64,000 bases of DNA from contig CM097884.1 in assembly GCA_044892505.1 (NCBI GenBank), positions 29,202,001 to 29,266,000 on the forward strand, written 5' to 3'. The DNA is from Schmidtea nova. Lineage: Eukaryota. Shown here one piece after another: positions 4,888 to 63,733 of the stretch. Each line of letters opens with the position of its first letter. Position 1 is the first letter of the stretch. The position numbers and the translations under genes are program-made. The notes under the pieces were generated by a model that was given only the letters and a program-made list of their open reading frames with translations, had not been told where the DNA came from and did no database searches.

Positions 4888-4913
4888 GCCATTTTGATGG
4901 CGGTATATATACC
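4888..4913 (-). promoter_or_regulatory. Putative LTR core promoter: TATA palindrome followed by a YY1-like motif
   Basis: GGTATATATACCGCCATCAAAATGG(C) is conserved in B (also 43844-43869), D (57121-57146) and E (59118-59142) despite diverged flanks. Confidence 0.55.
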
Positions 4914-5514
4914 ATCAAATTTTCTCTATCTCCGGTAGTGCAATAAAACAAATTGTTCTAGAATTTTCTCTTAATTTTTTCTAAATTAATTCTAATGATT
5001 TTCCGAAAATTAATTCCATATTTTTGTATAATAATTTTTTATAAACTATAAATAATTTATTTTAATTAAAAAATTTTTATGTTTGAATCGAAATTTGTTC
5101 GATTTGATTTAATTTATGATTTTCGATCCATATTAATTCTTTCTATTGTTATATGTGAAATTTTGTGATAAATTCACAATTTTCCTCTAGAATTGCGTTA
5201 ATTTTTCTGTACTTGAAGGTTTATGACAAAATTCTGTTCTTTATGGGCATTTTCCATGGGTTTTTTGCCTATTCTAGCTTCCAAACATTCTGCTTTTAAT
5301 TTTTTCCGAGATTTCAGTGAAAATATTTATAAATTCGCAGTTAGCGCTTACTCTACCGGTTGATGTGTTTTGATTCCACTTCACCTTTTGATGTTTTCCA
5401 CTTAATTGTTGGATTTTTAATGGCAGCTAAGGTTAAAAATGGAATCTTGCGCGTTCTCTACCTATGGGGTTATCGCTTTATAAAAACAAATTGCGTTTTG
5501 GCCCAACATAAAAT

Positions 5515-14200: not shown

Positions 14201-17200
14201 ATTAGGATTATCCCTAATATTCCTGCCATCATCTGTCCAAATACTAAGAATCTTCCCCACATGGCTTTCATCATATTATTGGTTGCGTGTTTAAAATGTT
14301 CTGGTGACAACAATAACTCGTAGTTCGGACTTCCCACGAAATTTGTTCCACCGGTTATGGCTATAATATTTGATAATACTGCTTGTCTTTGGGTTGGAAA
14401 TAGTATATGCTTTCTCGCTGCTTCTAAATCTGCATCTCTGTACACTCCACTGTGTGAAATATCTATGGGTTTAAATTCTATTTCCGTTGTTAACTCTGTT
14501 AATCCAAATCGTTTTGGTGCTGATACAATTTGCCGATTTGGAAAAACTACCCATTTTGCATTTCCCATGTCATACATTGGTCCATACGCATTACTGCAAT
14601 TGAACTGATGGGGTTCGTAATTTGGTGGATTTATTATTCTCGTTACTGCTTGTACAAATCGACTTCTTCCTTTGTAGAATATTTCCAATTCGTTAGTACA
14701 TCGGTTTTCTGGTATTCTTGGTCTTTCCGGTAGTCTTGCTATCTCCTTTTTGCATTTGTATGTATACATAACTTCTCCCACAATTCGACCAAAATGTCCT
14801 TCTTGCAGTGGTAATAGTGGTATTGCGTTATCTGGATTCGTTATAGCCATTGCTAATTTGGTTCTAAAAATTTCTCTGTTCAATAGACAATCGTTTTGTA
14901 TCAAATCATGATATACTTTCTCTGTTGTTGCCATACCTCTATGGTATAAGAAATCCATTTTATTATTAGCGTACAAATACGTTTTTATGTCCACTTTATC
15001 TGGTTTTGGTGTTGCTTCAGCTATCCCTGTTGTAGATAGGAAAATACCTTTGTAATTCGTTTTTATTACTAGTCTTCCGCATTTACTGACGGTTTCACCT
15101 TTTATGAATCTCATTCCTACTCCTGGATCTTTCGATATAATTGCTGTGGGTGTATTTACTAATTTAAGTCTTTCCGTTGTCTCTCTATGCTGGAATGTTC
15201 TTGTTCTTTTGAGCTGTTCCATTTCTTGTCTGGTTGAATCATCTTTGGGCTCGTCATAAACTTTGTCTAGTATTTCCTCGAATTCAGCTTCTTGTAATAA
15301 CATTAGTCGACATTTATTCGCATCTGCCTTATAAATCAATGTTGATGCACCGGTATTACACGAGGTATGTTCTGCAGAACAACTTGGGAATTTTCTCATT
15401 GATAGCGTGTCTGGATCAAAATATCCCGGATATGTTTCCAATTTCACTTGATACATATCTATTACTACTACATTGCTGACCACTTTTCCTAATAGAGTGT
15501 ATGCTCCTCCTTTACAACTTCCGTCTGGTTTATTGACGTATCCAGCTGCATAAACTCTTGTTATTTTAATTGCTCCTGGTTGGGCAGCTATTATTATGTT
15601 TCCTGCTAACGATATCCGTTTTGAGGTAAACGCTTCATTGCACTTTTCGCTATCCAATGATATTACTGTTGATTCCATTCCTGGTTCGATAATTGTTGAA
15701 TATGAATATTGTCCACAGTAATACGCGAATAATTTTCTCGTAACCGTGCATTCTCTTATTTCTGCTTTGATAAGGTCTGATTCCTGATACACGTTGTAAC
15801 TTATTTTATTCACAATTTGTTCCAACTTTTTCGGCGTGGCTTGTTTACAATCTTCCGTATCTTTTAATGAATATTTCTCGCTAAGCTCGATTTTGTCACA
15901 ATCGTATACCACAAACGATGTTGCTCCCTTTATGCACATCATCCAAATTAATATTGTGGTCAATATCGCATTCATACTCTTCCCATATGTTCTTTGATCG
16001 CGAAAATTCATTGATCCTTCGAATTCTGTTAATAATTCTCTCAACTTTACTTGCATGGTTTCCGTTTGATCTATTTTATCTACTGAGTTGATGAATGTTT
16101 TCCAACCTCCTTGTTTCATTACATACGGCTCTATCAGTTTTTCAATGATTTCCGTTATTGTGAATATATGACCATTTGAACTGTATCTGGGTGTCCTCCG
16201 TTTGTACAAGACGATCATATTGTACATTAAATATGCCAAGCTTACTAAATATTTTGCTGGTTCGTTCGTGTTGTTTGTCAGTTTTTCGATAATTTCTTTT
16301 ATTTCTGCAGGATTTCTCAACGTCATTCGTACTTTTCCTTCGATGATTTTTGAGATTATTGGTTTAATTGTTATCCACAGTTGTTTGGCTTCTTGTTGGA
16401 TATGGTCTCTTTTTAACGCTCTTTTTATTTCTGGGTTTGCCAATGCAAGCATATCAGATACTAATTCATTTATCCATCGGATTCCTTGTTCGGTTATTGG
16501 TGTATTACCTTTCACTTGATTTGCAACTGACACTAGTTTGCTTACTTTTAGTTGTAATTGTTCCGTCTTGCTTGTTGGTTTTGGATTTCTTTCTGTTTGA
16601 TCTTTCGCCGGCCTCCCTCTTGGGCGTTTATCTATCATCGTTCCAGCTTCTCGTCTACTTAGCTGATTATTCGCGATTTCTCTCGATGCTGTCGCTCCTC
16701 TATCTGTGATCCAATTACTCCATTCGTCAGTTGTAGAATTTTCTCTTGCTCGTTTTTGTACTTTTTCTCGGTCGGTTTCATCATCGGTTGCTGTGATTTT
16801 TTGCCGTTTTACCCAAGGAATTCTCTGGTCATCGGTTGTTGTTTCATTTTCTATATTTGAGAATAAATCCCCTGAGTAAAATGCTGTTTCATCGTTTTCT
16901 CTATTCGCAATATTTGTCAGTTCTTCTAATACGTCTTCATCAGTTGTTTCGACAATAATTTCACTTGCAGCTTCCGGTATTTCTGGTTCGTCTAAGTTTC
17001 CGAACAATTTTCTCATTTGAGTTCGATTTCCCTCTTTTCTGATTAGTTCATTGCCTGCAATTTTAGAAACAGTTAAATGATTACTGGTTCCGATTCGTAT
17101 CGGGGTTACACCAATTTCTATCTCATCATCGAGTGATCTTCCTTCGTACTGTAGATGAAATGGTAATTCAAATGGCAGTTTCTTTTTAATCTCTTTTATT

Positions 17201-20200
17201 TTCATGGTTGCTAATACTTCCATTTCTTCCTTTCCAAAGTCTGGAAAATGGATTTTTAATCCACATTTTTGTGGTTCGTCACTTTCCCATTCCATTTGCC
17301 TCCATTTTCTTTTAAGCTCATCGAATTGTTCTGGATACCAAGTGTATACTCGTCCATATTCCTCGATTTCCTTCACGAGCATTGTCAATGTTAATCTATC
17401 CTTGCCATTCTCGAGAATCCATTTTGCTAATTCATCTACCGCTCTTCGTTGATTTTTGGCACCTTTTTCTAAAATATCGATTAACTGTCTACTTTTTTGG
17501 GCTTCAGTTCTCTCTAATACTTCAGGGTCCATCAGTTCATCCATATCTACAGGACGTAATCTCGAGGTTGTTTCTTGTTTTCTCAGCACGCTGATTCTGG
17601 GAATTGTCAACTTTTCCCTTACGTCTTCCTCAATTTTGCATGAAACATAAATATCTCCTTCGCTTTGATATCGAGATTTTTTATCTAACAGCAGGTGTTG
17701 CAAGATAAATTTTGGCGCTCCTGATGCTATATTTTCCTCTTTTCCTGGTTTATGATAGCAGCTGCTGAGCTTTTCTGGATAAATTTCTTCACTATGACCC
17801 TTCTCTGAATTGTAGGATGATCCTATAGACAATGTTACTTTTTGATCGAACGGCCATGTTAATTCCTCGTCATTGATCCCTTTACAGATGATATAAAATA
17901 ATGACGTATGAGTTCCTTTACCAACTCCATCTCCGTTTGGATAAATTCTCATTTTTAATTTATATCCGCCTGGGTAAGTGTAAAATTGTGGGCTTGTCAA
18001 TCGCGTTACTTCGCCCTCCTTTGCTGCTCTCACTTTATCTGCCCAATTTGAAATTCTCCATTTGAATGGTGCAAGATATTTCTCCTCGCATATGTTTTCG
18101 TCGACTTCCAAAGGTTTCCCAGTTATTTCTGATGGTTCGTAAATCTCATGGGTTTCCTCATATAACAGTTCCTCAGGTATTCGTTCTGGTTCGCATGTTA
18201 CCCATCTATCCTCCACATTTGGTTGTTCCCATCTGTATCGATTTTCTAGTTCTATCCATGTCTTTATCCACGGCGTTGGTTTACAATCTCCATAATGAAG
18301 AGGTTTTATTTTCCCCTTTATTTCATTATCCGCTCTCCAAAAATTATATAAATCGATTATCTGGTCTAATTTTCCGACCATTTTTCTTTTAAATCTCCTC
18401 ACGTGACCATCGTCTTTCTCTGGTTCGTCCATTGCCCATATTTTGACTGTTTGACCGTCTTCCCAAATACCCAGTTTATATAAGGGTGTCTGATCATCCT
18501 TTTCTAATACATGTTTATTGTACACGATTATTACATCTTCTATTAATCCGTCATCACTATTTTGTTTCACGTTATGCATAATTTTCTCATCGATTATCCG
18601 TATGAATTCGTCTACCGTACAATCTGGTTCTATTTCAATTGTTTGTTCGTCTCCACTTGGCAACGTTAGATTGACTTTTATCGTTTCCGCTCGATTCTTT
18701 GATCTCTGATAGCCGCCATATTGACTTATTAATTCGATTGCTCGTTTATCATCTAATCTCACTAACTCGGTATCTCGTACGAACTCTACAAATCTCTTCA
18801 TTGATGCTGGTCTTCTTCTATTTATACTATCGATCATTTTCCTCGTCTGGTCTATTGCTTGTGTCGAAAGCATTAATCGATTTTCCCATATTGCTTGTTC
18901 GGCCAATTTTAATAATTTTGGTCCGATTTCGTAATCGTATCTATCTCCAATTTTTGTCAGTAGTTTCATCACTGTTTCTTCAATCGCGTTCTTCTTTAAC
19001 GTTAAGGTATTCAACTCGTTCGGCCATATCATAGCATCTACTAGATGTATTCCCTTTTTGATTCGCCAATTATTCAAATAAAGATAATCGTTTTTAAAAC
19101 TGCTACCCATTTTCTCTTGCATCCAGTCATATAATGCGTTAGTATTTGGGTCGTTTATTTTTATTCCTAATACATCGATTTCGGGGTGGTGTACTTCTAT
19201 CGTATACTCTTGAGTTGGCGTTTCTTTTAATTGCTTCTTGTATTCCGCTATTGAGTTGTTCCACTCTGCGGTGAATACTTGATTTTCTACCTGATTTGCT
19301 TGGGTGACTTCCTTCATAAACTTCTGATATACTTTTTCATCAATAAACTCCCGATTCTTCATGGCTAATTCAACCTTGCCTGTTACTTCTCCGATGATAT
19401 TCCAATCGTCTTCACTTAACAACGCGTTGCTTGATGTTTCGGTATCACTTTCTTCGCTAGCCAAAGGTGCTTTTAAATCGTTGTTTTCCTCACTTGACGG
19501 AAATAAGTCACCTCCTAAACTACTTACTTCGCTAATCTCGTCTTCTGGATCTGTTTGATCATCATTTCGCATTCTCATCATATTTATTTTATACACATTT
19601 TTAAGATCTCTTTCTTTTTCCTTTTGCGTTCTTGCTTGTGACCACTTCATTGTTGCGTCCCATCGTTTTCTTTTCAGTGCTTCTACTTCGTCATCTGTCA
19701 ATGTGTTATTCGCTTTTCGAATTGAAGCTTCAATTTTCTGCAGTAGTGCTCGTTGAAGTCGGTTTCTGGTTATAATTTTTTGAGCTTTCTTTGTGATCTC
19801 TTCAACTTCTTCAGTGCTAGTTTTTTTCAATTTCTGATTTAACTTTCCTACTTCATTCGCGACAATAGTTGTTATTTTCTGTTCTATTTCCTTCGCTTTT
19901 ATTTTCACTATTTCTTCCAATTCTTCACAGGTGTTGCAAACATTCCCACTGTCTCTTTTTTCTTTTCTTCTTTGATTATATTCTTGAATGAATATTTTCC
20001 TTTCTTCTTCGTTCATTGATTTCATTGAAACTTCGAATTCTCCATCTTTTTCATTAATCTCTACATCTGGTAACTCTGTTATCATTTCCTTCACTTTTTC
20101 TATTACATTCTTCTGCAATTTACTCATTTCCTCTGGATCTTCTTTATCTTCGCTTTTAACTCTCATCATGTTAATTTGCCTTGTATTATTTCCTCGATTT

Positions 20201-21480
20201 TTCCATCTCTCCTCAATTTCCCGTGCTTCCTCCAACTGAAGTCTCTGCCATTCTGCTTGTTGTTTCGTTTGATTTTTGTTCGTCCTTAACTTGTGAGGCT
20301 CGGTGATTTGCAAAGCATTAATTCTTGGCTGTTGTGGTTGGCTGACTGTTGTTCGTTCGATTAATTCCCTCAGTTGTTCAAGTTCCTGCATCACATTGAT
20401 TTGTGGTGTTTGATTTTGGTTTTCGGTTCGCTGTGGTGCATTGACTTGGTTTGGGCATTCTCTCGCCATATGTCCAGGTTGTTGGCATTTGAAACAATTG
20501 GCGTTTCTTCTAAAATTTCCTCCATTATTGTTATTTCTTACGTAGTAATTTCCTGCACTAGCATTTACGGTTCTGCATACATTTTCTGTATGACCTTTTC
20601 TACCACAACTTTGACATGTTTTAGTGCTATAACATTCATGACTCAGATGTCCAGATTTTTGACAAATGTTACATATTTTGCTGGTGAATAAATTGTTATT
20701 CCCGTAATTATTCCTATTACTATACGCGTTGCTGTAAGTATTGTTATTTCTGTCTGTATTGTTTCGATTACGGTTGTCCATATTTGTATTTTGATTTCTC
20801 ATTGGAGTTTTGAACATTTGTTGCGCTCTTGGTATAAATTGATTCATCATTGGAGTCGTGTTGCCTGGTTGATTACCTTCGTTGGTCGTATTGGTTGTTA
20901 ATTTTGTTGTTGGTTCCGCTGTCAAAACAGCAACTGTCAATGGTGGTTTTAAATACATTTCGCATCGATTCGCGATTGTCAGTGCTTCCTCCAACGTTTT
21001 TGGTGCCTGACATCCGATATTTGCACGAATATCATCTCTTCTGAGTCCACTCAGAAATACTCCTACCAATCCTTCATCTTTTACTTTTTCCTCGCCGTAG
21101 GCATCTCTTGCCATACGTTTTAATTCGCACGCGAACATCGCATTGGATTCGTTGGGTTTTTGTTTTCTGTGGAAGAAATCTAACATTTTCTGATTTTCTT
21201 CTTTCGCCACTCCAAAGGTTTTTTCTAAAAAGTCCTTGATTTCTTTCCATGTTCTCAATTTTTCATCATCTCGTCTTGCCTCTAAATAAACATCTTGTGC
21301 GCTTTCTTTTAAATATAGCGGCATTCGTTCTCGGGTGGCTTCGTCTGACCAGCGACAGATCGTAATATAAACCTCAAATTCCTTTAGGAAGGTTTGTAAT
21401 TTACTGATATTACCATCAAATGGTTCTCCACGGAATTTTTCTTTAAAATCTCCAAGGTTGGCTGCTGACGTGGTACTCAT
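11236..21480 (-). CDS. 3414-aa Gag-accessory-Env-PR-RT-RNaseH portion of the giant polyprotein
   Basis: Uninterrupted ORF with gag CCHC x3, DTG protease (13468-13476), RT ([10 protein letters not shown], YIDD at 12247-12258) and RNase H ([23 protein letters not shown]). Confidence 0.97.
   Translation of the reverse strand: [3414 protein letters not shown]
11480..12720 (-). other. RT and RNase H domains, Ty3/Gypsy type
   Basis: [56 protein letters not shown]; RNase H TDASG/E/D residues. Confidence 0.97.
13230..13530 (-). other. Retropepsin aspartic protease domain
   Basis: [23 protein letters not shown] ... CIIGTDL. Confidence 0.95.
14075..15975 (-). other. Chuvirus-like (gB-related class III) envelope glycoprotein domain
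   Basis: Signal peptide [20 protein letters not shown], then FVVYDC; Cys-rich ectodomain; [16 protein letters not shown]; membrane region [28 protein letters not shown] plus a second hydrophobic stretch, as I recall for chuvirus-type glycoproteins. Confidence 0.75.
16085..16560 (-). other. Bcl-2-like domain 2
   Basis: BH2-like [11 protein letters not shown] at 16093-16125, preceded by a hydrophobic core helix ([16 protein letters not shown]) and a BH3-like helix ([11 protein letters not shown]). Confidence 0.7.
17065..17270 (-). other. Ubiquitin-like domain 3
   Basis: [15 protein letters not shown]...MKIKEIKKK...[12 protein letters not shown]...I..G..NHLTV follows the beta-grasp pattern. 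Confidence 0.6.
17630..18069 (-). other. TRAF-type MATH domain
   Basis: FKWRISNW...[55 protein letters not shown]...G.PKFI...GDIYVSCKI. Confidence 0.92.
18430..18681 (-). other. Ubiquitin-like domain 2
   Basis: [26 protein letters not shown]...[31 protein letters not shown]. Confidence 0.75.
18705..18990 (-). other. Bcl-2-like domain 1 (divergent)
   Basis: BH3-like LTKIGDRYD (18934-18960), BH1-like SMKRFVEFV and BH2-like ISQYGGY, in the expected order and spacing. Confidence 0.55.
18995..19208 (-). other. Possible ubiquitin-like domain 1
   Basis: [19 protein letters not shown]...[10 protein letters not shown]...[30 protein letters not shown]; beta-grasp-like pattern only. Confidence 0.4.
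20450..21480 (-). other. Gag capsid-like domain and three CCHC zinc knuckles
   Basis: [64 protein letters not shown]. Confidence 0.95.
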
Positions 21481-38644: not shown

Positions 38645-40385
38645 TGCTGGGTTTATGGGTGGGTTTTAAATAATTAATAATAAATAAATAAATAATAATC
38701 AAACAAATAATCATAACTAAGTATACTTGGGATGCCTCACCCATAACCATACATAAAAAACAAATCGTCTCACTCGCACGCCCCTAACTATTCCCTATCT
38801 AGTTAGGTTGGAACTGCGCGCGGTGGTTGAAAAATGATGGGCAGGTGAGCTCCATCGCTGGAACTACTCCCCATTTATTTTCACGGGTTCCCGCTGCCGC
38901 TAGAAGGTCTTACGCGTTATTCTCTCAATGTCTACGCTCAAATTCCTTTAAAAAAATTAACAAACGTCTTTTAAATAGAGATTTTATTTAGCTGCAAACT
39001 CCTTACGCTATATAAAACCCAAAATAATGCGCTGCACCTTAAAATTATATTTATTTATAAAAACTCTCGAAAATTTCCTTTACTCAAAATCACCGCTATG
39101 TCGTTGCATTGTTATGCGTAACAAAATCTATTGATCAAGTTCGTCTTGCTAACATTTTAATTCTGAAATTAAATCACTACATAAGATATAAAATTCCTGT
39201 AAAGCTCCAAAATTATCGCTGAAAAATGCGCAAACCTCAAAACCTATCGTTCAACACTCAAAAATCCTATCATTATATGAAACCCTCAAAATCTATCGCA
39301 ATTTCCAAAACTATTCTCTATGTGCAACCATTCATTATGTGCAAAGTTCACTAAACTCAAAAATATCCGAAAAAATCCCAGATACATAAATTATAAAAAG
39401 GTACAACCGCCGTGTGAAGCGACGAGGCTCCACGATGACGACTATGTCTCCCTCGCCGCGTTAGCAGCCTAGGAAGCATAACTATGTAAATATTTTATAT
39501 AATAACTACAATAATACTCATCATCGAATATTTATTTTCGGAAAAATTAGCCTCAAAACTTTACTAGGACCACTACTTAACAAATTAACCAACACATCTC
39601 ACACAAAAATATTCAAATAACACAAAAATACCCGTTCGAAATCGATCCACACGACTGGCGAAATCAAAACCAAAATTTTGCTCTCAGTAAATTAATGCCA
39701 AGTAAGTTTAGATTGTGATTTTTCAGCGTCTATTTATACTAATTTTACTGACGCTTAGATATTTTGTTATTAACATAATTTATTAACAATTTAAACTTAC
39801 TTATTAGTTTTAATAAGTGAGCATTTATTTATCTTTCATAAATTTAACTTTATAATTTGATTTATTTATTTCGAAAATATTTGTTTTTAATTCTATTAAA
39901 TTAGGTGTGTATCCATTGTTTTATTGTGCATTTATTGATTAAAACAATTTATTTTTAAATCTATTATCATTCCTATCTCTCTTAATTTTTGCGATATTTC
40001 AATAGGGATTTATTCTATAATTTTTAATAAATTATTTTCTTTATTCTGATACTGATTTTATTCTTTGATCATGCTTTTCATAATCACTTTACAAGCACTG
40101 ATCTTCCCCATTCAATTCTCATGCGGTCTTTCGTGTGTAAATCTGACCTGCACTCAAATTGTGTGCTCTCCTTTGAGATGCATCTTTTTATCGCTTTAAC
40201 CCTATCTCGACAGACTTATAAGATGCAGTTCGTAAGACTACTATTGTACTTAACTGTTTTTATTTTCCCTTGCGTTATTTTACTGCTTAACGTCTTGTCG
40301 TTCGTTTCTTTTTGTTTCTCTTTGTATGTATTTATTTTTTAATAAATTTTAATAAAATTTTATTTTTGATTTCACCAGCCCAACA
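38645..40385 (-). repeat. 5' LTR of element A
   Basis: Direct copy of 27210-28950, followed by TAAATT and the PBS. Confidence 0.95.
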
Positions 40386-40638: not shown

Positions 40639-40648
40639 AATTTTTATA

Positions 40649-43600
40649 TGGTGGGTTGTTGACCGTCAATATGACCTTGACGTCTCTATGGCTCTCATCA
40701 ACAACTCAACACATAAAACATTGAAATTACCACCTTGCTACCCGTCACTATGTAACGTTGGTACTGTAACAAGTGGGTGGGTATTCGCAATCAGTGAGCG
40801 TCGTCAATACGAAACTATGATTGACCGAATATCTCCTGGGTCCAAGGGCTACCGATGGAAGGTTTCTTGCCCATTTTGTCCCTTCTTACATGATTTACCT
40901 ATAAGCTTTCAATACAAATTTTATCAGAAATTTACCTAAATGTTCTACATAACTTTAGATTTATTATTACATCCAAATAAATTATTTCGAGCATCAAAAA
41001 CACTAATATAACCCTATTTTTACCAATATTGCATTTTATGATAATTAATACATAAAATATTATATTTTTATAGAAAAATTTTAATCTGCATTTGAAATTT
41101 AAGAAAAATTTTAATTATTACCGTAATTTAATCCAGTTTAGAAATAATAAAAATAAAATTTCCGTTTGTTTAAAATTGCTAATTTAATCAAAAGGACAAA
41201 TTTACTCAATTTAAAAATTATATTAATTTTAAAGGTAATTTTCTGAATTTTCTCACTAAATTGATTAATTAACGATTTTTATAGTTCAGATCAACAAGAA
41301 ATGGATCTTCCCAGAAACTACGAAGCCAGAGGAAAATTCTCCCACCCCAAATGGGTCAATCCAATTAGATCTCGAGCTTCTACGAAGCAAAATAGCCCGC
41401 TCTACCAACCAAGTAAAATTTTGATTATTTCAGAATTATAATTTATTTTGAACAATTTTAGAAAATTTCTTGAAGAGAATATGTTGGAACTGGCCCTTCA
41501 AGTACTGCAAACCGGAAAAATCCTTGCCGGGGACTCTTATCCCTCAAACTGAATTTTTTTCAATAAATCTTTAGATAAAAAAAAATTTTTTGTCTTTACT
41601 CTTTTTAGTTTGAGTTTTTATTAGTTTTATGAAATTTTTGTAAATTAAAAATAAACTGTAATGTAAATGGCCTATTTGGCTGGGTATATTCAATTTTATA
41701 TGGTAGGTTTGAATGATAGAAATTTTTGTATGGTTTTTCTGGATGTATGTTGCCGACTAACATAACTGTGTAGAATTTTCAGTATTGTTTGCTTGTGTGT
41801 ATATAACTATTGAATGCTAATAAATGATACTGTGTATGTGTGTATATTGTATTTTAAATATATGTTGCTTGTGTATTAGTATGGGAAATGTTATTGAATG
41901 ACATGGATGTAATTTTTTGCAAATAGGGATGCATTATGATTTTTGNNNNNNNNNNNNNNNNNNNNNNNNNNNNNNNNNNNNNNNNNNNNNNNNNNNNNNN
42001 NNNNNNNNNNNNNNNNNNNNNNNNNNNNNNNNNNNNNNNNNNNNNNNNNNNNNNNNNNNNNNNNNNNNNNNNNNNNNAATTTTTATGAAGTAATATAATA
42101 ATAAAATTTCCAATTTTTATATTATAAATTTTTATAATACTTTTTATAAATTTTAGTTTTATAATTTTATGAAAATAATACAATAATAAAATTCCTAATT
42201 TTTATATTATAAATTTTCATAATGCTTTTTATAATTTTAATAATATAATAATACCATTTCTAATTTTTATAATATGAATTTTTATATTCGAATTTTTATA
42301 TTTTAAGTATATATATATAGTAAAAAAAAATTTTCCCTATAGAATTTTGAAATTTTGGATTTTTTGAAATAATATTTTCGATTTAAAATTTTTATGGGTT
42401 TCAATATAATTTTTGATTTATAAATTCTTAGGAATTTTATAAAATGACAAAATCTTTTATATCATAATAATATTCGGAGAATTTTTGGTTCACAATTATT
42501 CATTACAAAAATTTTCCAAAAGTAAATTTTTATTTTTTGATCGAAACGAAATTCACATAATAATAAATTTTTCATCCATAAATTTCGAAATCTAAATAAG
42601 CATCTAATCTAAAAAATTTTATATGCTAAATAAAAATGAAATAAAAATAAGTTATAAATTTTTCAACGAATATTTTTAACCTCAAGTAAAGTAAATTTCG
42701 GTTTTGTTGAGCATGAATTTCCCAATCAAAGTACACGCGAATTTTTCGGGGCACTTCACTTAGGAATTTCAGGCTCTCGAAAAACAAGATTCACTGGAGA
42801 AACTTATTTAGACCATAATGAGTTTTAATTCAGATTAAATCAATACTTGTTTCACAATTCGTTTTCATTTCAGGAGCATTATTCTAGCTTTGAGCATTAT
42901 TTCGAACGATTTGCCTTTCATCATTAGCTTCCAATTTTCTTGTGTTTTCCCATAAGATGATCGTCGATTGAGAGCGTGAAGGTGAAGGTGAGTACGAGTC
43001 GATTTTTAATCAATAATATTTCCTATTTTAGATTTCAAGTCATGAATTAGAAAATGTTGTGTTATATTACGAAAATGTTTATGTAGATAATAAAAATATA
43101 CTACTCTATTATAATAAAAATCATTAGTATAACAAAACCTTGCTCTTGGCCAAACCACGATTCCCCAGTTGGGATGACGAGAATTTGGATGTATGAGCCT
43201 CACCTTAAAGTGGAAATATGGGCTGGCCGATTACCAATCAGACAACGATCCACCCAGGCTACTAACAGATCCGCACAACTAAGGCTGGACGGATCGTCAG
43301 AGGATATGGGAGAAAAAAAAATTTCTTTACTTATTTTCGATAATTTTATTCAAATAACTGCTGGTAAACTAATCGTTAGGTAGGGAATTTGTGTCTTATT
43401 ATGATAATAATAACAAGAAAATTTTTAATAAGAATTGATATTTTAATAATTTCATAATAGCAATGTATAAATCCATAAAATAATACATAACAAATTATCA
43501 AAGAACGAGGAGTGGAATGATCGTCAGGCATGATGGACGACCATTCCAATCCTCAATAAAAACAAATATAACATAAGAAAAAAACAATTACTGTTTACGT

Positions 43601-44464
43601 TTCCTCACGAATTTTGGGAATTAATAAATTCTTCTAAATCGGATTGAAATTCTCTGGGATTCTAAAAATCTTCTTGGAAAATAATGAATTCTTCTTAGCT
43701 AGAAGCTTTTCAACAGAGTTTTTTCACAATTAAGATGTTGTAAATTAAATTCTAAATTCTTAATAGAAAAAAATTTTCTTTTTTTTTCTCACAAATTCTG
43801 AGTTAAAGAAAACGAAAAATTTTTTCACCAAATTCTGAACTCTGCCATTTTGATGGCGGTATATATACCATCAAATTTTCTCTATCTCCGGTAGTGCAAT
43901 AAAACAAATTGTTCTAGAATTTTCTCTTAATTTTTTCTAAATTAATTCTAATGATTTTCCGAAAATTAATTCCATATTTTTGTATAATAATTTTTTATAA
44001 ACTATAAATAATTTATTTTAATTAAAAAATTTTTATGTTTGAATCGAAATTTGTTCGATTTGATTTAATTTATGATTTTCGATCCATATTAATTCTTTCT
44101 ATTGTTATATGTGAAATTTTGTGATAAATTCACAATTTTCCTCTAGAATTGTGTTAATTTTTCTGTACTTGAAGGTTTATGACAAAATTCTGTTCTTTAT
44201 GGGCATTTTCCATGGGTTTTTTGCCTATTCTAGCTTCCAAACATTCTGCTTTTAATTTTTTCCGAGATTTCAGTGAAAATATTTATAAATTCGCAGTTAG
44301 CGCTTACTCTACCGGTTGATGTGTTTTGATTCCACTTCACCTTTTGGTGTTTTCCACTTAATTGTTGGATTTTTAATGGCAGCTAAGGTTAAAAATGGAA
44401 TCTTGCGCGTTCTCTACCTATGGGGTTATCGCTTTATTAAAACAAATTGCGTTTTGGCCCAACA
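40649..44464 (-). repeat. 5' LTR of element B (3816 bp)
   Basis: Direct copy of 1692-5508; PBS adjacent; followed by TSD AATG. Confidence 0.95.
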
Positions 44465-50402: not shown

Positions 50403-53400
50403 TGTTGGGCCCACCAAATAGCCTAAAAATAGCGGAAAAAAGTAGTAACAATTAAAACAAAATAATAAAAAATAATTTTTCTTAAACTAAGAAATTTAAC
50501 GAAAAAAAAATAAAAATAGAGAGTTAATTAATAATAAATAAATTACCAGGAGAAAATATTCTGAATTTCGCAACAAAGCGACCAGCAGGGGGCCTGAAAC
50601 AGAAAATTATAAATTAATAAAAAATAAAAGTCCAAGTAATTGAATAATTACTTGAAAAATCAGGACTACCCAATGAGAAATCTGAAACGGAAATAAAATA
50701 TTATTTAGAATAAAATAAAATGATCGACATACTTTGATTGGTCAATCTGGCCAACTGGATCAGTATAAATACCGATCCGAAAATCACAATGTAGTAGTTT
50801 TTACCTAACTTCAATTTGAAGCTTTAAACGACTATAGCGTTTTTGAGTTTTCAGTACTGATATTATTAAAATCTCGATTTACACTCGGAAGAAGAAGTAA
50901 AGATTTTTTTTATTTTTTATTTTAATTTGTTTTAATTGCACTATGTCGGTTTTCCATGATTTCGTTTTTACATTATATTAATATATGTTCTGATGATTTA
51001 GTTTATTTAATCATTTATTTAATTATATAGATATATGCTTCCTCGACTGCTAACGCGGCAAAGGAGTTAGTCGTTGTCGTGGAGCCTTGTGGCGTCACAC
51101 GGCGGTAAGACCTTTTTATTTATTTTTTTAGGTTAAAGTTTTGATAATTTTGTTAGAACTATTTTATTCGATGAAAACTTTTAAAGACTAGTTTCAGTAG
51201 GAAACCTGTTTTATTTTTGTAGATTATTTTTGCATTTCCACGGTTGCACATAGGATGGGTCGGAACACCTAGAGGTGAAAGACATCTTCGTAAAGGAAAG
51301 AATAGCTCAGCCTTAATTGACACCCTGAAATTTTCGCTGTCATATCATATATTTACCAGAGGGCCTGTTCATATTCTAATGATGCATTTAATAAGGGGCA
51401 AATTGACATTTTCAGTACAAGACATTTAACAGGGATTTTAACACTATTGTACCAATAGCAAGTAAACGAGGTTCTGTGAGAAATAGCTCAATCAACTCAA
51501 CACATGGCAGACGAATTAACTAGATAATTATAATGCGATCCTTTGATTTTTAATCGACAGTTTTACTATAAAATCGATTGCGAATTGAACGATTCGGCGT
51601 AATACATAAACACCTCGTAGTTGTCATATTATTTTGTTACTAAACCATCCACATTCTCAGTGAAGCGAACAAAGTCGAAAAATTTTCTCGATCGAACTAT
51701 CCAGCGGATAATGCGGGTACCGATTTAGAGTAAACAAGATCAAATCTAGTTAATGTAACCGCTAATCCTGATCGCTGTAGATAGCGCAGGAATTTAATGA
51801 AAATTTTTATGGTATTTATCTTGATTGTGGTACATCACGACAGTATTAATGTAATAAAGGGAATAGAAAAACCTATTTTACCGTATCTTACCCTTCGCAA
51901 TTGGGCCCTTAACCTATTTTATGGGCAATACCTGATTAAAGATCTTATAATTAATGATTCGGTTCATTCATTTTCGTCACACGTGTTAAAATAGATGGAG
52001 TTAACTACAGTGAAACAATTCTTAATCGTTCAAAAGGAATCATCGAGACCTTCCGATATTAACCGTCAGATGGAGCTAAAAGCATTACCACCCTCAATAT
52101 TGCGAACCGTGAAAGTGCAAATGTTTAAATGGCGGAGGGAGTTTGGGAAGAGATGCCCGTTCTCCATTTGGAATACTGGCAAGGATAGTGTACTGTATCG
52201 GGGAGGCCTGGGGGGGCCGTTTTCCAACCAGAACTATTCATCAAAGTTCGGACGACTGATAATTAAAAATGGAGCGAATCGAGAACTAGCTAAAATTGTT
52301 TATTGGGGACATATCCAGCAAAGTGAAATAGCAGAATTGGGCCTGCAATTATTTACATAGCCTCGGCCTCTTGGAGATGAATACGAACAGAGCCAACCGA
52401 CGTTTTCCCTGAGCAATTTGCGTCAATCACCGATCAATCAAGGACTTCATGTTGCCTATGTTTTTAAAACAGATTTTTCCAGTTCATAAATCCGTGTGTA
52501 TTAGTACAAAATAAATAATTGCGTTTAAATTTTCCTGTTTTGTTTCATGTTTTAAACATTTATATGCATAGGATCCATTATTCCGAACTTGAGAGATAAA
52601 ATAATCATCTAGTAAATTATTTCAGTATGAACTCAGAAACTCATCAACAGAAGGAGATTGAGAAGTTATGGCGAATCAGACGGGCTCAATAGAAAGAGCT
52701 GGTTCAAGTAAAAGTCCAGTTATCCAAAGCTGAGGCGCAAATAACATATCTACGAAAAAGTTGGTTTGCTCCTGCCAGGGTGAAGGATCAAATTTCCCGA
52801 ACCGAAAAAGTGCAACGAACTGCAGAGGACTACAAACTGGAGTGGGAGGCCACCAAGATCGAGTTGAGAAAATGTCTCCACTCCGTAACAACGTCCTACA
52901 TAGAGAAAGAATTAAGGTCACAGATCAGACCGGTCACTTATCAAAGCTGGGTATCAGAGCAAAAACCCATGTGCTCGATTGGTACTGACGTCGAGGGGTT
53001 AACAGATGGAAAAGTAGACAACGCCCAACAGGCTACGAATGACGTCACCACGAGTAGTACATACCTAAAGCGAAAAAGAATTGGTCAAAAGCGCAGAAGG
53101 CAAAAGAAACTCTTTGCACAGCGACTCCAGCTACAAGTAAATCATTTAGCAAGTTTGAGTGAAATCGACTTACTCGCCGAAATCTTTCCACCAGAAGGAA
53201 ACTTCACAGAATTGTTATGATCAATAAAGATTTGTGCGAAGTATACCGTGATCTCTGTTGTTATTCATGATTTTCCTCTAATTATAGTGCAAGTAAATAA
53301 GACGTAAATAATTAATATCAAGCACATTTTGGTTAAAACTCAATAATAAATAATTAACACATATGAAATAAAGTAATGAATTAATAAATAAAGCGTAAGA

Positions 53401-53626
53401 CCTTCTAACGGCAGCATGAACCCGTGAATATAAATTGGGAGTAATTCTAGCAATATAGCTCACCTGCCCATCATTGTTCAATCATCTTGCGCATCACCAA
53501 CTTGGCTATATAGGGAGATAGTCAAGAGCGCTCGAGTGAGATAGTAAATATTTATGCATGATCATGGACGAGGTATCCCTAGTCACTATTAGAAATTTTT
53601 TATCTAACCCCTCCATGAATCCAGCA
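50403..53626 (+). mobile_element. LTR C (3224 bp), long variant of the A family, followed by a truncated PBS
   Basis: Starts TGTTGGGCCC, ends CCATGAATCCAGCA, then TAAATT-TGGGGGC. Blocks at 51040-51115 and 53390-53590 are homologous to LTR A. Confidence 0.88.
52627..53220 (+). pseudogene. LTR-internal coiled-coil/Arg-rich ORF (~197 codons, one premature TAG at codon 22)
   Basis: ATG 52627 is in frame with track ORF 52780-53220; MNSETHQQKEIEKLW...KRKRIGQKRRRQKK. Confidence 0.65.
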
Positions 53627-53702
53627 TAAATTTGGGGGCGTAAAATAAATTAGGGTAAAAAAGATTTACTTGATTTTCTTTTGGGAAAAAACATTTACTT
53701 TC

Positions 53703-56516: not shown

Positions 56517-58523
56517 TGTTGGGCCAAAACTGCAAATTGTTCAAATGAAGCGATAACATCACTGTAGAGAGCGCACAAGATTCTATTTTTACCAAAACAT
56601 CATTTAAAACCGAAGTGGTTAAGTGAAAACACGCCAAAAATTAAAGTGGACAAAAGTGCATTAACCAGTAGAGAAGGCGCAAGCTTTTAATTTACAAGTC
56701 CTTAAACCAAAACACCAAGCAAAACTAAAGTGGTTAAAAGAAGAACGTTTAAAAAGCTAGAATAGACAGAAAACCCATTGGATATGCACGTGAAGAACGC
56801 ATTTAAGTTATAAAACCTCAGTTGTCGAAATTTAGCATGCTTTTAGAAGGAAAGTTACGATTTTATCTTAAAAATTTGTAAAAATATAAAAGGAAAACAA
56901 TTTTGACCAAATTACAACAAATTAAATCAAATTAGAATAAACTTTAATCCAAAAGTAAAATTTTGGATTGAAAATAAATTATTTAAAGTTTTATGAAAAT
57001 TTTATGAAAAAATATTAACTTAATTTTGCGGAAAATTGTTGGAATTAATTTAGAGAAAATTAGAAACTCCTTCTAGAACAATTTGTTTTAATACATCAAT
57101 GAAGGTAACACATCGAAGGAGGTATATATACCGCCATCAAAATCGCAAGAATCAGAATTTTGCGGAAAATTTTGCCAACAACCTGTTTTAAAACTCTATT
57201 AGAAGATTTTAGACGATTTCAAGTTTAGAAGATTTTTGCAATCCTTCAAAGATTTGCCGAAAACTTATTTTAAACTCCACTAGAAGATTTCAGACGATTT
57301 CTAGTTTAGAAATTTTTCACAACATCCATAGGAGGAGAGATCAGAATTTTCAAGAAGACTCCTGATTTTATTTAGAAGACAATCAATTCGTTAGAGGATG
57401 TAAGAATATTTTTCTTATTTAGTGCGGAGTCATCGAAAAGTCATGCCCATTCAATCACCTCTTACCCAGTAATTTTTTTTATTTATCATTCGATATATGA
57501 TTATTGATTTATTATTATTGTTATACATATTTAAATTTTATGAAAATATTAATTTTATATTCATCTTTTGATTATTATAATTTTGAAGAATTTCCTTTTC
57601 GACACTGTCACAGATTTCCATTATGGACACAAAAATTTCATTTATAGATTATTTATTAGATAAATATGAAACATTTTTTTACGCTCCCAGACAATCTGAC
57701 ATCCGTCCGGCTTTGTGCTGTACGGATGGAAGTAGCCTGGATGGATCGCTATTCGATTCGTAATCGGCCAGTCCATTTTTCCGCCTCAAGGTTAATCCCA
57801 AACATCCATGCTCACTTCATCCCAACTGGGGAACAGTGGCTTGGCCAAGGGCAAGAGTGTTCATACTAATGATTTTAGTTATAATATTGTAGTGTATCTG
57901 AATTATATTATATAAGATAAAAATGAAAGACAAAAATGATAGCTTGATAAAACATGTCGTTACTCCATCCAACAATCATCTTTAATCTAACAGGATCAAT
58001 TTTGATAAAAAGTTCCAACTCGTTATACGCCTTCACTCTCACAACAATTGTCATCTTATCAGAATCTACAAGTCAAATAAAAGTCGATACTATAAAAATC
58101 GTTCAAAATAATGCTCAAAACTGATAAAACATTTGCAAAGAAATGAAATATGAGAACAAGTATTGATTTATTTGAATTAAATCTCATTTAATTCAGAATC
58201 ATCTATAATAATTTACTCCAGTGAACATTAATTTCGGGAATCTGAAGTTCTCGAGTAGAGTGTCTTGAAAAATTCGCGAGCACTTTGCTCGGGAGATTCA
58301 CGTTCGAACGAAATTAAAATTAATCACGTTTGATATCGAAAAAACATGATCGAATTGATTTTGAAGAATAATTAAATAAAAATCCTAAATCTGAAATTGC
58401 TATAATTTTGTAAAACTTACAATTTCAGATTACAATTTCAGAATTTTATTAGAAATTTGGTACCATCTTATATAATTTGGATTTATTTTATTTCGTTTAA
58501 AAATTTTTTTAGACTATTATATA
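56517..58523 (+). mobile_element. LTR D (diverged B family), interrupted by LTR E; probably resumes at 63734
   Basis: Starts TGTTGGGCCAAAAC; shares the TATA/YY1-like block, the GC-rich block (57696-57860) and downstream blocks with B and E. Confidence 0.8.
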
Positions 58524-61500
58524 TGTTGGGCCAAAACGCAATTTGTTTTAATAAAGCGATAACCCCATAGGTAGAGAACGCGCAAGATTCCATTTTTAAC
58601 CCTAGCATCCATTAAAAATCCAACAATTAAGTGGAAAACACCAAAAGGTGAAGTGGAATCAAAACTTATCAACCAGTAGAGTACGCGCTAGCTGCGAGTT
58701 TGTAAGTCTTTTCACTGAAATCTCGAGAAAAATAAAAGCAGAACGTTTGGAAGTTAGAATAAGCGGAAAACCCATTGAAAATGCTCATAAAGAACAGAAT
58801 TTTGTCATAAACCTTCAAGTGCAGAAAAATTAACACAATTCTAGAGGAAAATTGTGAATTTATCACAAAATTTCACATTTAACAATAGAAAGAATTAATA
58901 TGGATCGAAATATCATAAATTAAATCAAATCGAACAAATTTCGATTCAAACATAAAAATTTTGAATTAAAATAAATTATTTATGGTTTAATAAAAATTAT
59001 TATATAAAAATATGGATTTAATTTTCGGAAAATCATCAGAATTAATTTAGAAAAAATTAAGAGAAAATTCTAGAACAATTTGTTTTATTGCACTAGTGAA
59101 GATAGCGAAAAATGGATGGTATATATACCGCCATCAAAATGGAACTTAGCAGAATTTGTGAGAATTTTATCGAAAAATTTTTTTTATTTATTCCAACAGA
59201 ATTTGTAGAAAAATTTGAGATTTCGTGAAAAAATCCGATTTAAAAAAATTTTTTTTTCCTACTCCAGACGACAGCTTAATTGAAGAGAATTTAATTTACG
59301 ACAACTTAATTGAAGAGAATTTGTGAAAAAACTCTGTTGAAAAACTTCTAGCTAAGAAGAATTTGTTACTTTCCGAGAAAATTTTGAGGACCTCAGAGAA
59401 TTCCAAATCCAATTTAGAAGAATTTGTTAATTTCCAAAACTTGTGAGGAAACGTAAGGAGTAATTGCTTTTTAATATTATATAATATAATTTATATTTAT
59501 TTTTATTGGGGATTGGAATGGTCGTCCATCATGCCTGACGATCATCCCACTCCTCGTTCTTTGATAATTTGTTATTTATTATTTTATGGATTTATATATT
59601 GTTATTATGAAATTATTAAAATATTAATTCTTGTTAAAATTTTTCTTGTTATTATTATCATAATAAGACATAAATTCCCTACCTAATGATTAGTTTACAA
59701 GCAGTTATTTGAATAAAATTATCAAAAATAAGTAAAGAAATTTCTTTTTCTCCCATATCTTCTGACGATCCGTCCAGCATTGCGTTGTGCGGATCTGTTA
59801 GTAGCCTGGGTGGATCGTTGTCTGATTTGTAATCGGCCAGCCCATATTTCCACTTTAAGGTGAGGCTCATACATCCATAATCACGTCATCCCAACTGGGG
59901 AATCGTGGTATGGCCAAGAGCAAGGATTTGTTATACTAATGATCGTTATTATAATAGAGTAGTATATTATTATTATTTTACATAAACAATTTCGTAATAT
60001 AACACAACATTTTCTAACTCATGTCTTGAAATCTAAAATAGAAAATATCACTGATTAAAAATAAACTTGTACTCACCTTCACCTTCACACTCTCAACAAC
60101 GATCATCTCAGGCGAAAAACGCAAGAAAAATGGAAGAAAATGACGAAAAGAAAATCGTTCGAAATAATGCTCAAGGCTAGAATAATGCTCACGAAATAAA
60201 ACGAATTGTGAAACAAGTATTGATTTGATCTGAATTAAACTCATTATGGTCTAAATAAGTTTTTCCTGTGAATCTTGTTTTCGAGAGCCTGAAGTTCCTA
60301 AGTGAAGTGCCCCGAAAATTCGCGCGCACTTTGGTTGGGAAATTCATGCTCAACAAAACCGAAATTCATTTTGCTCGATATCGAAAAATATTCTTGAAGA
60401 ATTTATAATTTATGATTTATATTTTTTATTCAGTGTATAAAACTTTTTAGGTTGAATGTTTATTTGGATTTCGAAATTTATGGATAAAAATTTTATTATT
60501 ATTTCATTTTGATCAAGAATAAAAATTTGCTTTTTATTATACTGCAAAAATTTTAAAATGAAAAAATTGTAAACCAAAAATTTTCCTAATATTGTTATTA
60601 TATAAAAGATTTTATCATTTCGTAAAATTCCAGAGAATTTGCAAATCAAAAGTTATATTAAACCCCATAAAAATTATAGATTGAAATTTTATTATTATAT
60701 TAATAATTTTTATCATTTCATAAAAATCTGAATTCGAAATTTTATAGAAAAATTTTATGATTAATAGATCTATTCTTAAAATATAAAAATTCAAATTCAA
60801 AAACCTATATTATAAAAATTATAAATTTTATCATTATTTAATTTTTCATAAAATTATAAATTAGAACTCCATAAAACTATTGTAAAAATTATTATTATTA
60901 TTTTGATTTAAAAATTATTATTATTAATTTAATTTTAGAAATATTTATATAATTTACATTATAACGACCCCCACGATATCTAAAAACCATAATGCATCCC
61001 TAATTGCAAAAAATTACACCCTTTTCATTCAATAGCATCATCCATACTAATTCACAAGCAACATACATATAAAATACAATAGACACACCTACACCGTATC
61101 ATTCAATAACATTCAACAATCATATACACACAAGCAAACCATACCGAAAAATCTACACAGTTATGTAGTTAGCATCGAATCTCGCATATACAATCACACG
61201 ATGATACATGTAAACTTATACATTCAAATTATCATATTAAGTCTCACCCATCCATTCGTAAAGTACAAAAATTCCATAAGTCAGTAATATATATCAACCA
61301 AGTACAATTATCATGCACCTATAAAGCCTTAAGATTCCGATTCCCCGAAAATATAATCCTCATTTATAATAAACGAAGAATTTAACGTTCTCTAAAAGTT
61401 TTATCTCTTATCGTCGATTTGAAATCGTTTCCCGGAATTGTTATGTTAATGTGGATCTCGTACGGTGATCTGATCACGTCTATATTAATGTCATCAACTT

Positions 61501-63733
61501 CATTTATACCACAATACGTGAATCTCGGGTTCGCGAATGAGGATAGACCCCACTCTGGATCGATGAAATTTCACACTTCCGATCATAAAATTGTATTTTT
61601 AAATTTTGTATAAAATTTCAATATTACGGAGAACATAAATAAATTAAGGTAAGATTTCCTAAGTTTTATTATTATTACATCATAGAAGTCATAATAAGAA
61701 AAAATTTTCTAGAGAAAATTCATAGAATCTTTATTTCTACTTACAAAATGACAATTAATTACATTCCAAAGAACTATTTGTGGAAATAGTTCAGATATCG
61801 TGGCAACATTTCTTCTGAAAATTTCAAATTTCGAGGCGAGTTCCACGAGAGAATCGATAAATTCTGAAGTTTTAATGTAAAAATTAGTAATTTAATCTTA
61901 TCCCACTTACGAGTTCACTGGTCGAACGGCTCATACCGATAGCTTCTTTGAATGGTTAACATCGGAAACTAGTATCTAAATTAGGAATGAAATATCATAA
62001 AGGAGTAAATACAAATCAACTTACCGCTAAATCCAATTGAGATCAGGGGGAATCCTATTCTAAAAATAGAAAAATAATCAATAATTATAATATACAAAAT
62101 CAAATTCGTATACTATAAATTAACCAATAGGAATCCACCAATTTTGCTTACTTGTTTATATAGTTTTCTTCTTTTACGGGGGAACAGCCTTGTGTTTAGG
62201 GGTGTCCGGACTAGATTTGAATTTTCTAAAATAAAATTTAATTTAGAATCTGAAAATATAGGGAATATCTAAAATTAATGGGTAATAATTAGATTGAATC
62301 TACTTAATATCTAGGCAGTTTATATTGATACCGTTGCTAATGCCTCGGCAAATTTTGGAAAATTAAATAAAAATTAAAATTTAGAAAAATTATAATTATG
62401 TTTCTGCAAGATAGACATTAGGGATAAGGAATAAGTGAGATATTGTTAAATTTATCGACACGGAAAAATACAAATTTAAAAAATCTTGAAACTAATAATA
62501 AAGTTTAGTTAAAAATCATTAAAAATCAAATATCTTGAGTAGATGTGTTGATAAAAGGTTTTCCCTTTTGATTTCCCGAGTTGAGGCTCGATGGGCGTAC
62601 CCATGGAAGATTCATAGTCAAATATGTGTTTTATAAAGTTTTTATGAATAACGTTATATGTTAAAATGGTTGTGCAGTAGCTACGTTCGACATGTACTAA
62701 ATGCTTGCATAATTTTAGAAAATGAACCCAATACAACAGCTCGAGGAGATCCGTGCGTTATTACTGGAAAACGCAAAACACAACAAAAAGGTCGACGCAC
62801 GGCTGGCCGAACTAGAAGCCAAAGGTGCATCCAACTCAGACGCACTCCAGATAATGACCGGCCGAATGGAAAAATTCCGGGCCCGCTGTCGCGAAATGGA
62901 GGCGACATGGTCCGATAAGGAGACAGTAGACCGGCTGAAGAAGCAGAATCAGCTGCTAATGCAACAGGCCGCCGAGGACGCAATGCGATTGCGGGCGTGT
63001 CGGGTTTCTATGCGAGAACAGGAACTCGTGAACCAGAAATTACAGGTAGATAGTGGCATCATAGCGGCCATACTACCGAAACCTCAACTTCCACCTCAAG
63101 AACTATTTCCGGTGAGGGTGGAGGAGGAAATTGCAGCAGCCGCGGCTCCAACCAAGCCGAAACGATGGAGGCCCAGTAAAGGAACAAGGGCCAGAAACAA
63201 GCGCCGGCAAGAAGCACGAATACTAGGACAATTGAGGGTCGAGGCCTCGAAAATCGGCGACTTAACTATTGACCTGACTCATGCACATTTTTGAGTGATT
63301 TTTGTAATAAATGTCGTTATTTCTATGCTATAATTATAAGTTTTCCATTAGTTTTCTTTTGTGTGATTGAATGGGGATAAAGATAAAAATAAAAACACTC
63401 AAATGCATTGATTAATTAATAAATAAATCACAGTCTCCGAAGATATTCAAATGAAAATCTCGAATGAAGAATCTACAGTGATAGAGCAGATAAATTAAGG
63501 GGACAAAATAGGCAAGAAACCTTCTATCGGTAGCCCTTGGACCCAGGAGATATTCGGTCAATCATAGTTTCGTATTGACGACGCTCACTGATTGCGAATA
63601 CCCACCCACTTGTTACAGTACCAACGTTACATAGTGACGGGTAACAAGATGGTTATTTCAATGTTTTATGTGTTGAGTTGTTGATGAGAGCCATAGAAAC
63701 GTCAAGGTCATATTGACGGTCAACAACCCACCA
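58524..63733 (+). mobile_element. Solo LTR E (5210 bp), long variant of the B family
   Basis: TGTTGGGCCAAAACGC...GGTCAACAACCCACCA, flanked by TATA on both sides (inside TATATA); no PBS follows. Confidence 0.92.
62722..63294 (+). CDS. LTR-encoded 190-aa coiled-coil protein with an Arg/Lys-rich C-terminal motif
   Basis: Intact ORF forming a GC-rich island in an AT-rich LTR; heptad-rich N-half; KPKRWRPSKGTRARNKRRQ. Confidence 0.75.
   Translation: MNPIQQLEEIRALLLENAKHNKKVDARLAELEAKGASNSDALQIMTGRMEKFRARCREMEATWSDKETVDRLKKQNQLLMQQAAEDAMRLRACRVSMREQELVNQKLQVDSGIIAAILPKPQLPPQELFPVRVEEEIAAAAAPTKPKRWRPSKGTRARNKRRQEARILGQLRVEASKIGDLTIDLTHAHF

Follow-up and report, generated by a model that had tools for sequence, protein, structure and literature searches.

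A gene under purifying selection, with a predicted spliced message, inside the long terminal repeats of Burro-like retroelements of Schmidtea nova

The window, that is, the whole 64,000-nt stretch of Schmidtea nova DNA that was analyzed, consisted of a nest of giant LTR elements (Table 1); the host genome searched amounted to 1.25 Gb. Element B, in which element A is nested, spanned ~25.8 kb from LTR to LTR after subtraction of A, and its 3,414-aa frame matched PF24664 (E 4e-69) at residues 2128-2446, between Retrotrans_gag and protease/RT. An in-frame env-like fusion protein between gag and pol, MATH and ankyrin cargo, an element of 25-30 kb and multi-kb LTRs were all found in B, and this domain layout places its clade among the Burro-like (gag-env-pol) Ty3/gypsy elements. 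The excerpted description of planarian Burro elements (Burro/GYPSM1; PMC6431247) gives a layout matching that of B, with a zinc-knuckle Gag, MATH, ankyrin, multi-kb LTRs and, between gag and pol, an in-frame fusion protein of the mononegavirus type. After the integrase of B, a 581-aa ORF (6807-8552, minus strand) showed sub-threshold fibronectin-III-like repeats and, close to its end, a hydrophobic stretch, and may encode a surface protein. Long tandem arrays with 26/52-nt and 56-nt units were located in the B leader (22400-23660) and the A interior (34600-35970), and an intact hAT-type transposase with zf-BED and dimerisation domains occupied 45948-47981 (minus strand).

LTR C is followed downstream by a primer-binding site and then by a gag remnant; between these two lies what we take to be a DDE transposase-like insertion (53734-54612, minus strand), and the stretch at 48400-49500 is presumably a decayed piggyBac-like copy. 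A single primer-binding motif was common to all lineages seen (40620-40642, minus strand; 53630-53640), and we assume that it resembles a tRNA-Pro site. LTR E is inserted in the older LTR D and is flanked by a 4-nt target duplication (58520-58523 and 63734-63737). Outside the window, D (L061) carries a broken copy of the gene described below (protein 59-65% identical).

Table 1. Features of the window (coordinates in the window; transcript features are predictions)
Feature	Position	Strand	Remarks
Element B 3' LTR	1692..5508	-	99.7% identical to its own 5' LTR
Element B integrase-ankyrin	8477-11233	-	other frame, after polyprotein
Element B polyprotein	11236..21480	-	Gag-MATH-Env-PR-RT-RNase H, 3,414 aa, single frame
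Element A 3' LTR	27210-28950		element A, nested in B
Element A 5' LTR	38645..40385	-	ORF-less; A nested in B
Element B 5' LTR	40649..44464	-	ORF-less; TATA box, donor and intron structure retained
LTR C	50403..53626	+	5' LTR; TATA-like box near 50764, donor-like site 50897
Shortened ORF-a, C lineage	51995..52360	+	second LTR gene, overlooked by the sequence-only reading
ORF-b, C lineage	52627..53220	+	197 codons with one stop (codon 22); acceptor 1 nt upstream of ATG
LTR D, 5' part	56517..58523	+	runs on beyond the window (L061)
LTR E	58524..63733	+	solo LTR, 5,210 nt, B clade, TG...CA ends
TATA-like box	59118..59129	+	flanks fixed; retained in the B, D and E lineages; start probably ~30 nt downstream
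Predicted non-coding leader exon	59150..59452	+	putative 5' end
Predicted GT-AG intron	59453..62718	+	3,266 nt; exactly absent from L005; equivalent absent from L092 and L022
Three-stem RNA structure	59750..59925	+	conserved among B, D and E, including B LTRs without the ORF; possible response or packaging element
Predicted splice acceptor	62710..62718	+	3 nt upstream of ATG
ORF-b, LTR E	62722..63294	+	intact, 190 aa
Arg/Lys-rich motif	63154..63207	+	residues 145-162, in predicted helix, conserved across E and D
Candidate poly(A) signal	63418..63423	+	316 nt before LTR end; more AATAAA at 63306 and 63388
Terminal 234-nt block	63500..63733	+	97% identical to ORF-less B; putatively U5-like

The intact ORF-b of LTR E, whose stop lies 439 nt from the LTR end, and the C-lineage ORF of ~197 codons with one stop, which ends 406 nt before its LTR end, were both found as an earlier sequence-only reading had described them. 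No further match to the E or C proteins was obtained inside the window by tblastn. The ORF forms an island of 48-53% GC in an LTR of ~28% GC. The two LTRs differ in status, E being a solo LTR and C the 5' LTR of an element; the view that the gene is carried in the LTR and left behind in solo LTRs was borne out, since a primer-binding site followed none of the 68 distinct E/D-type LTR ends. The same reading was right in that the short LTRs of A and B lack the ORF and are ~1.4-1.5 kb shorter (5,210 nt in E vs. 3,817 nt in B, and 3,224 nt in C vs. ~1,741 nt in A), but these are not simple deletions. B and E share LTR positions 1-2,640 (84-87% identity) plus the last 234 nt (97%), with 877 nt of its own in the middle of B where E has 2,333 nt, whereas A and C align over two blocks only, of 146 and 198 nt (77-78%). 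Derivation of the short LTR from the long one by deletion was rejected, as each carries its own middle sequence. The terminal 234-nt block folded no better than its shuffles (z -0.9).

Comparison of dN/dS across LTR copies, which had been suggested as a check, revealed strong purifying selection on the E-lineage ORF. The 150 genome matches scored, a set biased by its ranking on protein score, were all 94-100% identical to the ORF and 16 of them contained a stop. dN/dS ranged from 0.03 to 0.20 against 29 protein-ranked copies, a ranking that biases these values low, and was 0.097 and 0.071 for two intact copies taken from 60 evenly spaced 10-kb samples. Against 30 older copies chosen by DNA similarity to D, pN was 0.16-0.23 and pS 0.75-0.88, with synonymous sites saturated in 29 of the 30, and the differences at codon positions 1, 2, and 3 were 0.30, 0.17, and 0.57, respectively. 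When all six frames were compared, low ratios appeared only in the sense frame (0.03) and its antisense mirror (0.07), the other four exceeding 2. Genes of the C and F lineages gave dN/dS of 0.05-0.09 where unsaturated. A near-full frame was retained by three of the 30 older DNA-selected copies, one of them with a short deletion. Since copies decay after insertion, these data indicated that selection is acting on replicating lineages rather than on individual loci. Host domestication at the E locus was considered and found unsupported, given this decay.

Within the 600-kb sample, the gene stood upstream of 4 of 11 B-clade LTR ends (2 intact, 2 old), and a rough extrapolation gave ~8,000 copies in the genome (2,300-21,000), with ~4,000 intact (500-15,000). 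Tandem amplification of the ORF was seen at two places: 26 listed stop-free copies with identical scores at multiples of ~1.48 kb (G000:C1:610308393-610410303), and 6 stop-free copies at multiples of ~0.86 kb (G000:C2:9014884-9024791).

LTR E appears to hold a whole predicted transcription unit. The stretch from 35 nt past the TATA box up to the first donor-like site counted is free of ATG. A pyrimidine-AG acceptor precedes the ATG of the gene by 1-3 nt in four lineages, being present in 28/30 copies of E, 27/30 of C (at a fixed offset) and 20/20 of F vs. 38 of 768 background ATGs, counts that come from related and not independent copies; D copies have it too, though their upstream DNA is barely alignable. 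The two exceptions at E-type loci, L005 and L022, are both intron-less. In L005, itself a complete solo LTR, E position 929 is joined to 4196, with exactly GT...AG removed, and no other match to that joint was found genome-wide. In L022 the leader is joined to the same point, where 21 genomic sisters read GT, and the D-type copy L092 presents the same join, with GT at the joint in 10 of 11 sisters (17 matches, 12 fetched). Lineage F provided an exact intron loss between leader and ORF-a (L098, 200-1400). In total, the intron was absent from 3 of 90 mapped E/D loci, at least 8 of the 90 being duplicates. L035, L043, and L051 have joints that run into the middle of the ORF, and these were taken as deletions.

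The copies with the joint retain the sequence upstream of the TATA box as well as the downstream LTR and have no poly(A) tail, so they likely stem from reverse transcription of spliced element RNA. Three genomic copies without exactly the GT-AG intron thus point indirectly to a spliced message. Since these joints tie the ORF to the LTR's own leader, spliced-leader trans-splicing is not needed for the gene, and it could still serve as a second route. Four contig runs of unknown kind over 61250-63760 were uninformative on expression: they included a transposase adapter loose end and no joint at the acceptor among the 15 joints listed of 34, and the donor lies outside the stretch covered.

AATAAA occurred 260-400 nt from the LTR end in 53 of the 68 distinct ends, and 3 ends had it inside the final 235 nt; within 40 nt after the stop it was found in 16/16 F, 14/15 C, 11/27 E, and 1/11 D-length frames. 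From these signals we infer U3 at ~1-630, R at ~630-4,900 and U5 in approximately the last 300 nt of LTR E. With a start near 59150 and poly(A) near 63440, the gene would lie in a ~4.3-kb R and each intact solo LTR would be a self-contained minigene; alternatively, the intron could lie inside U3 under an internal promoter. The C and F LTRs displayed the same order, namely TATA, short leader, donor, structured stretch, ORF-a, ORF-b, and AATAAA. Small putative frames also occur behind acceptor-like sites in other LTRs: an AC-rich block (window 61160; B LTR position 2702) has such a site plus an ATG, which opens a 52-55-codon frame in B-type LTRs and meets an immediate stop in E, and in 4.4-kb LTR variants a similar site precedes a 46-codon frame (L227, LTR position 2940).

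The predicted intron contains a conserved RNA structure. Among 15 copies, 11 of 50 predicted pairs had changed on both sides, counted on the same alignment from which the structure was derived (0/500 shuffles as many; 1-2 in slid controls), and the E sequence alone folded at z -2.3. At the same position in the C/A clade (51030-51118 in LTR C) a different hairpin pair was found, with weaker support (4/27 pairs). Rfam returned no match for either structure, and the idea of a ribozyme, considered for both, likewise found no Rfam match. The intron structure could be a plain packaging signal.

The AlphaFold model of the E protein predicted helices at residues 3-34, 38-64, and 66-117, with a break after Trp63, followed by a low-confidence linker and a basic helix at 153-189 (pLDDT 66, pTM 0.23). 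The C protein model has the same plan, with its break likewise at the conserved Trp. Both basic motifs reported beforehand, GTRARNKRRQ and GQKRRRQKK, are present in the respective proteins, and the basic motif is reminiscent of those of Rev and Tat. Net charge was +7 to +15 in 14/14 proteins of the E/D and C/F/G lineages. A pattern similar to an export signal lies N-terminally (residues 7-15) in 5/5 E/D proteins and C-terminally in 4/9 of C/F/G, being absent from 2, with a chance rate of 9-94% of tail shuffles. Dimer prediction for residues 1-120 was uninformative (score 0.02).

No homologue was obtained at E <= 0.001 for the E protein among 463 candidates or for the C/F/G alignment among 4,656. 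A search of 1.84 billion representatives with the C/F/G-side profile returned a single match, P0001, a seven-fold tandem repeat whose coiled-coil segment aligned with profile positions 10-51; it was rejected as repeat-inflated. Pfam gave sub-threshold coiled-coil matches only, and among PDB sequences there were two matches at E 2 for A1 and none for A2. Foldseek found nothing at E <= 0.001 among viral and PDB structures, a blank that is weak because the models had pTM of 0.23 and 0.28. Profile, PDB, and Foldseek searches thus showed no sequence or fold similarity to a known member of the Rev/Rex/Rec/Rem group.

ORF-b of the C, F, G, and H lineages clearly forms one family (C-F identity 30-35%, E down to 1e-22). 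The shared MN..QQ start of the E and C proteins, to which attention had been drawn, did not hold as evidence of homology, BLASTP giving no link between them (E 1.4). The profile-profile alignment proposed as a check was suggestive only. With shallow profiles the E/D and C-side families gave an HH probability of 0.5%, and 6 of 60 shuffles scored as high; with deeper profiles (26 and 20 rows) the probability was 9.6% (E 0.0033), gapless over 63 columns and with Trp63 on Trp46, and 0 of 80 shuffles scored as high. The score of 25.8 compared with 17-18 for reversed controls, whereas cross-HMM scores were no better than reversed controls. Because this profile score comes together with a shared position, acceptor, length, and plan, we consider homology of the E/D and C/F/G/H genes more likely than not. 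Upstream of ORF-b, the C and F LTRs also carry the acceptor-led ORF-a (L093:713-1348; L047:792-1319), of 160-211 aa and rich in Trp, Arg, and Pro. Its dN/dS of 0.17-0.23 pointed to purifying selection; no Pfam family was found for it, and the C-type and F-type were not clustered by BLASTP.

Possession of the gene differed among elements, in carrier samples that are small and ranked, not random. All 20 young env-protease-bearing B relatives had LTRs (3,991-4,606 nt) without the gene according to tblastn and HMM, the longest sense ORF being of 31-79 codons; these were the 3' LTRs of 20 among the 40 listed copies (733 candidates) that matched the B env-protease junction at ~100%, and the interiors were checked only for B-like spacing to the LTR. 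Conversely, the 6 gene-bearing paired B-clade elements, picked by eye from genome matches and, in two, covered except for up to ~2 kb of leader, were all without gag, env, and B-type RT; all had protease, 5 an ankyrin match and 5 a MATH match, together with other acceptor-led ORFs, and one contained nested unrelated RT matches (35-44%). One lineage-F element has gag-env-pol, an RT 92% identical to that of B and a related gene in both LTRs. This indicated that complete elements may either retain or have lost the gene, that non-autonomous elements carry it, and, given the 20 gene-less young relatives, that it is dispensable in cis.

Several other features of these elements were observed. All 40 listed genome matches to window 13300-14100 were ~100% identical, which corresponds to a very recent burst, and the LTRs of these copies, 4.0-4.6 kb long, differ in their middle part, which suggests that this part is often exchanged. 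A young non-autonomous family with E-type LTRs (L207-L222) is devoid of gag, env, and RT but encodes a long protease-ankyrin ORF, a MATH ORF, and several further ORFs, many of them just behind an acceptor-like site and some with signal-peptide-like starts. Between F and B (L224; window 11236-21480), identity was 92% in RT, 54% in protease, and 52% in env, with unalignable LTRs, a sign of recombination. Lineage F (L110:3050-3505) encodes a 152-aa RING-finger ORF (PF13920, E 2.6e-09) just inside the 5' LTR.

As to function, the reading that we favor, tentatively and with considerable doubt, is that ORF-b encodes a Rev/Rex-like RNA-binding regulator, expressed from a spliced message within one LTR, which would aid export or 5' poly(A) read-through of intron-keeping RNA. 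The short spliced message would be the default product of the LTR. Full-length RNA would have to keep the intron, since most copied LTRs have it, and would also have to read through the first poly(A) signal. An R region with both an intron and a poly(A) signal would pose a difficulty that complex retroviruses overcome by means of Rev-type proteins, in that a short spliced message forms easily whereas the genome has to be exported unspliced. The N-terminal coiled coil is predicted to oligomerise and the basic helix to bind the intron structure, and a protein acting in trans would explain why gene-less young relatives keep that structure. The predicted spliced leader, the Arg/Lys-rich predicted helix, the covarying structure in the removed intron, and the architecture common to the lineages are in line with this proposal. 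It is weakened by the blank searches for a homologue or fold match to a known regulator, by an export-signal pattern that is variable and has a high chance rate, and by the lack of the gene in all 20 young env-protease copies; besides, strong selection on a purely trans-acting product would need a local benefit, the structure might serve packaging instead, and the positions of the start and poly(A) sites are themselves predictions.

According to the excerpted account in PMC2661877, Rev, Rex, Rec, and Rem come from spliced messages and have an arginine-rich motif, whereas fully spliced messages no longer contain the RRE. With them, as there described, the E gene shares a small basic protein, an arginine-rich stretch, a predicted spliced message, and structured RNA in the removed region. 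It differs from them in its longer coiled coil, in the absence of sequence or fold similarity, in that gene, intron, and structure all lie in the LTR, and in its absence from young env-protease relatives. MMTV Sag is a U3 membrane protein. Like sag, as covered in part by PMC2661877, the E gene is a protein gene inside an LTR; unlike sag, its product is predicted to be soluble and basic, and it lies behind the LTR's own TATA box and intron, in a predicted R.

A transcription activator or silencing antagonist of the Tat/Tas or VANC kind, in which a nuclear basic coiled-coil protein would bind the LTR DNA or nascent RNA of its own element and relieve piRNA/H3K9me3 silencing of its family, is a possibility to which we give less credit. 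The same spliced early-gene layout and basic motif would suit it, and a family-specific local benefit would fit the selection seen in gag- and RT-less elements. It sits poorly with the Pfam search, which found no DNA-binding or chromatin domain, and with the fact that, within the intron, non-coding conservation is highest in an RNA structure that has compensatory pairs. In bZIP proteins the basic region does not come after a coiled coil and linker, unlike in the protein studied here. BURRO1 and BURRO4 are under SMEDWI-2 control according to the part of PMC8532177 available to us, and VANDAL elements have family-specific suppressors in the excerpt of PMC6719617, both of which favor this alternative. 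VANC of VANDAL (PMC6719617, in excerpt) is, like the E product, a small accessory protein specific to its element and without a known protein family, which may act in trans on its own family, but it belongs to a plant DNA transposon and has no similarity to the E protein.

It is rather unlikely that the product is an RNA chaperone or packaging adaptor that would coat element RNA for helper Gag particles and would be most useful to gag-less elements. LINE ORF1p and the hepatitis delta antigen are models for such a role, with which the coiled coil and basic tail would agree. None of the 6 gene-bearing paired elements has gag, env, or an RT of its own, and the strong selection would be explained if the product preferred to act in cis; yet the complete lineage-F element keeps gag-env-pol plus the related gene in both LTRs, and neither an RRM nor a zinc knuckle was found with Pfam.

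We regard as improbable that the gene is cargo directed at the host, as are the TRAF/MATH, ankyrin, and RING genes of these elements, with the basic patch acting as a nuclear localisation signal only: many internal accessory ORFs begin behind an acceptor-like site as well, and apoptosis and ubiquitin domains abound in Burro cargo (PMC6431247, in excerpt), but no host homologue appeared among the searches and the fixed LTR position across lineages suggests a tie to the RNA cycle of the element. A chance or dead ORF in repeat DNA, to which the decay of individual copies might point, is refuted at the level of replicating lineages by the low dN/dS, the third-position excess, the frame controls, and the exact intron loss in three copies.

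Accessory ORFs in Burro interiors are known (PMC6431247, in excerpt). That description, as far as it was available to us, reports accessory ORFs and domains and no LTR gene, LTR intron or gag-less partner family, unlike the situation found here, and the part of PMC11410931 available contains one mention of Burro. No title or abstract in our literature search dealt with a gene inside Burro LTRs; the primary Burro description (Grohme 2018) and its supplements may bear on this. New here are the three exact joints for the gene family, the covariation in the intron structure, and the division of elements into those with and those without the gene.

More speculatively, and with low confidence, Burro-like elements might be complex retroelements in which the LTR is a complete early-gene unit with a 4-kb R and an independently arisen Rev-like switch that would bind the RNA structure of the LTR intron. 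B-clade gag-env-pol elements would have dropped the gene, which gag-less partners and thousands of solo LTRs would supply, in a mutual helper-satellite dependence.

Whereas solo LTRs are commonly regarded as non-coding remnants, those described here contain a gene under selection, with a predicted promoter, intron, and poly(A) signal of its own, and the gene-less and gene-bearing LTR variants within one clade provide a natural comparison. If the protein were an RNA export or read-through switch, regulation of the complex-retrovirus kind would have arisen independently in a Ty3/gypsy lineage.
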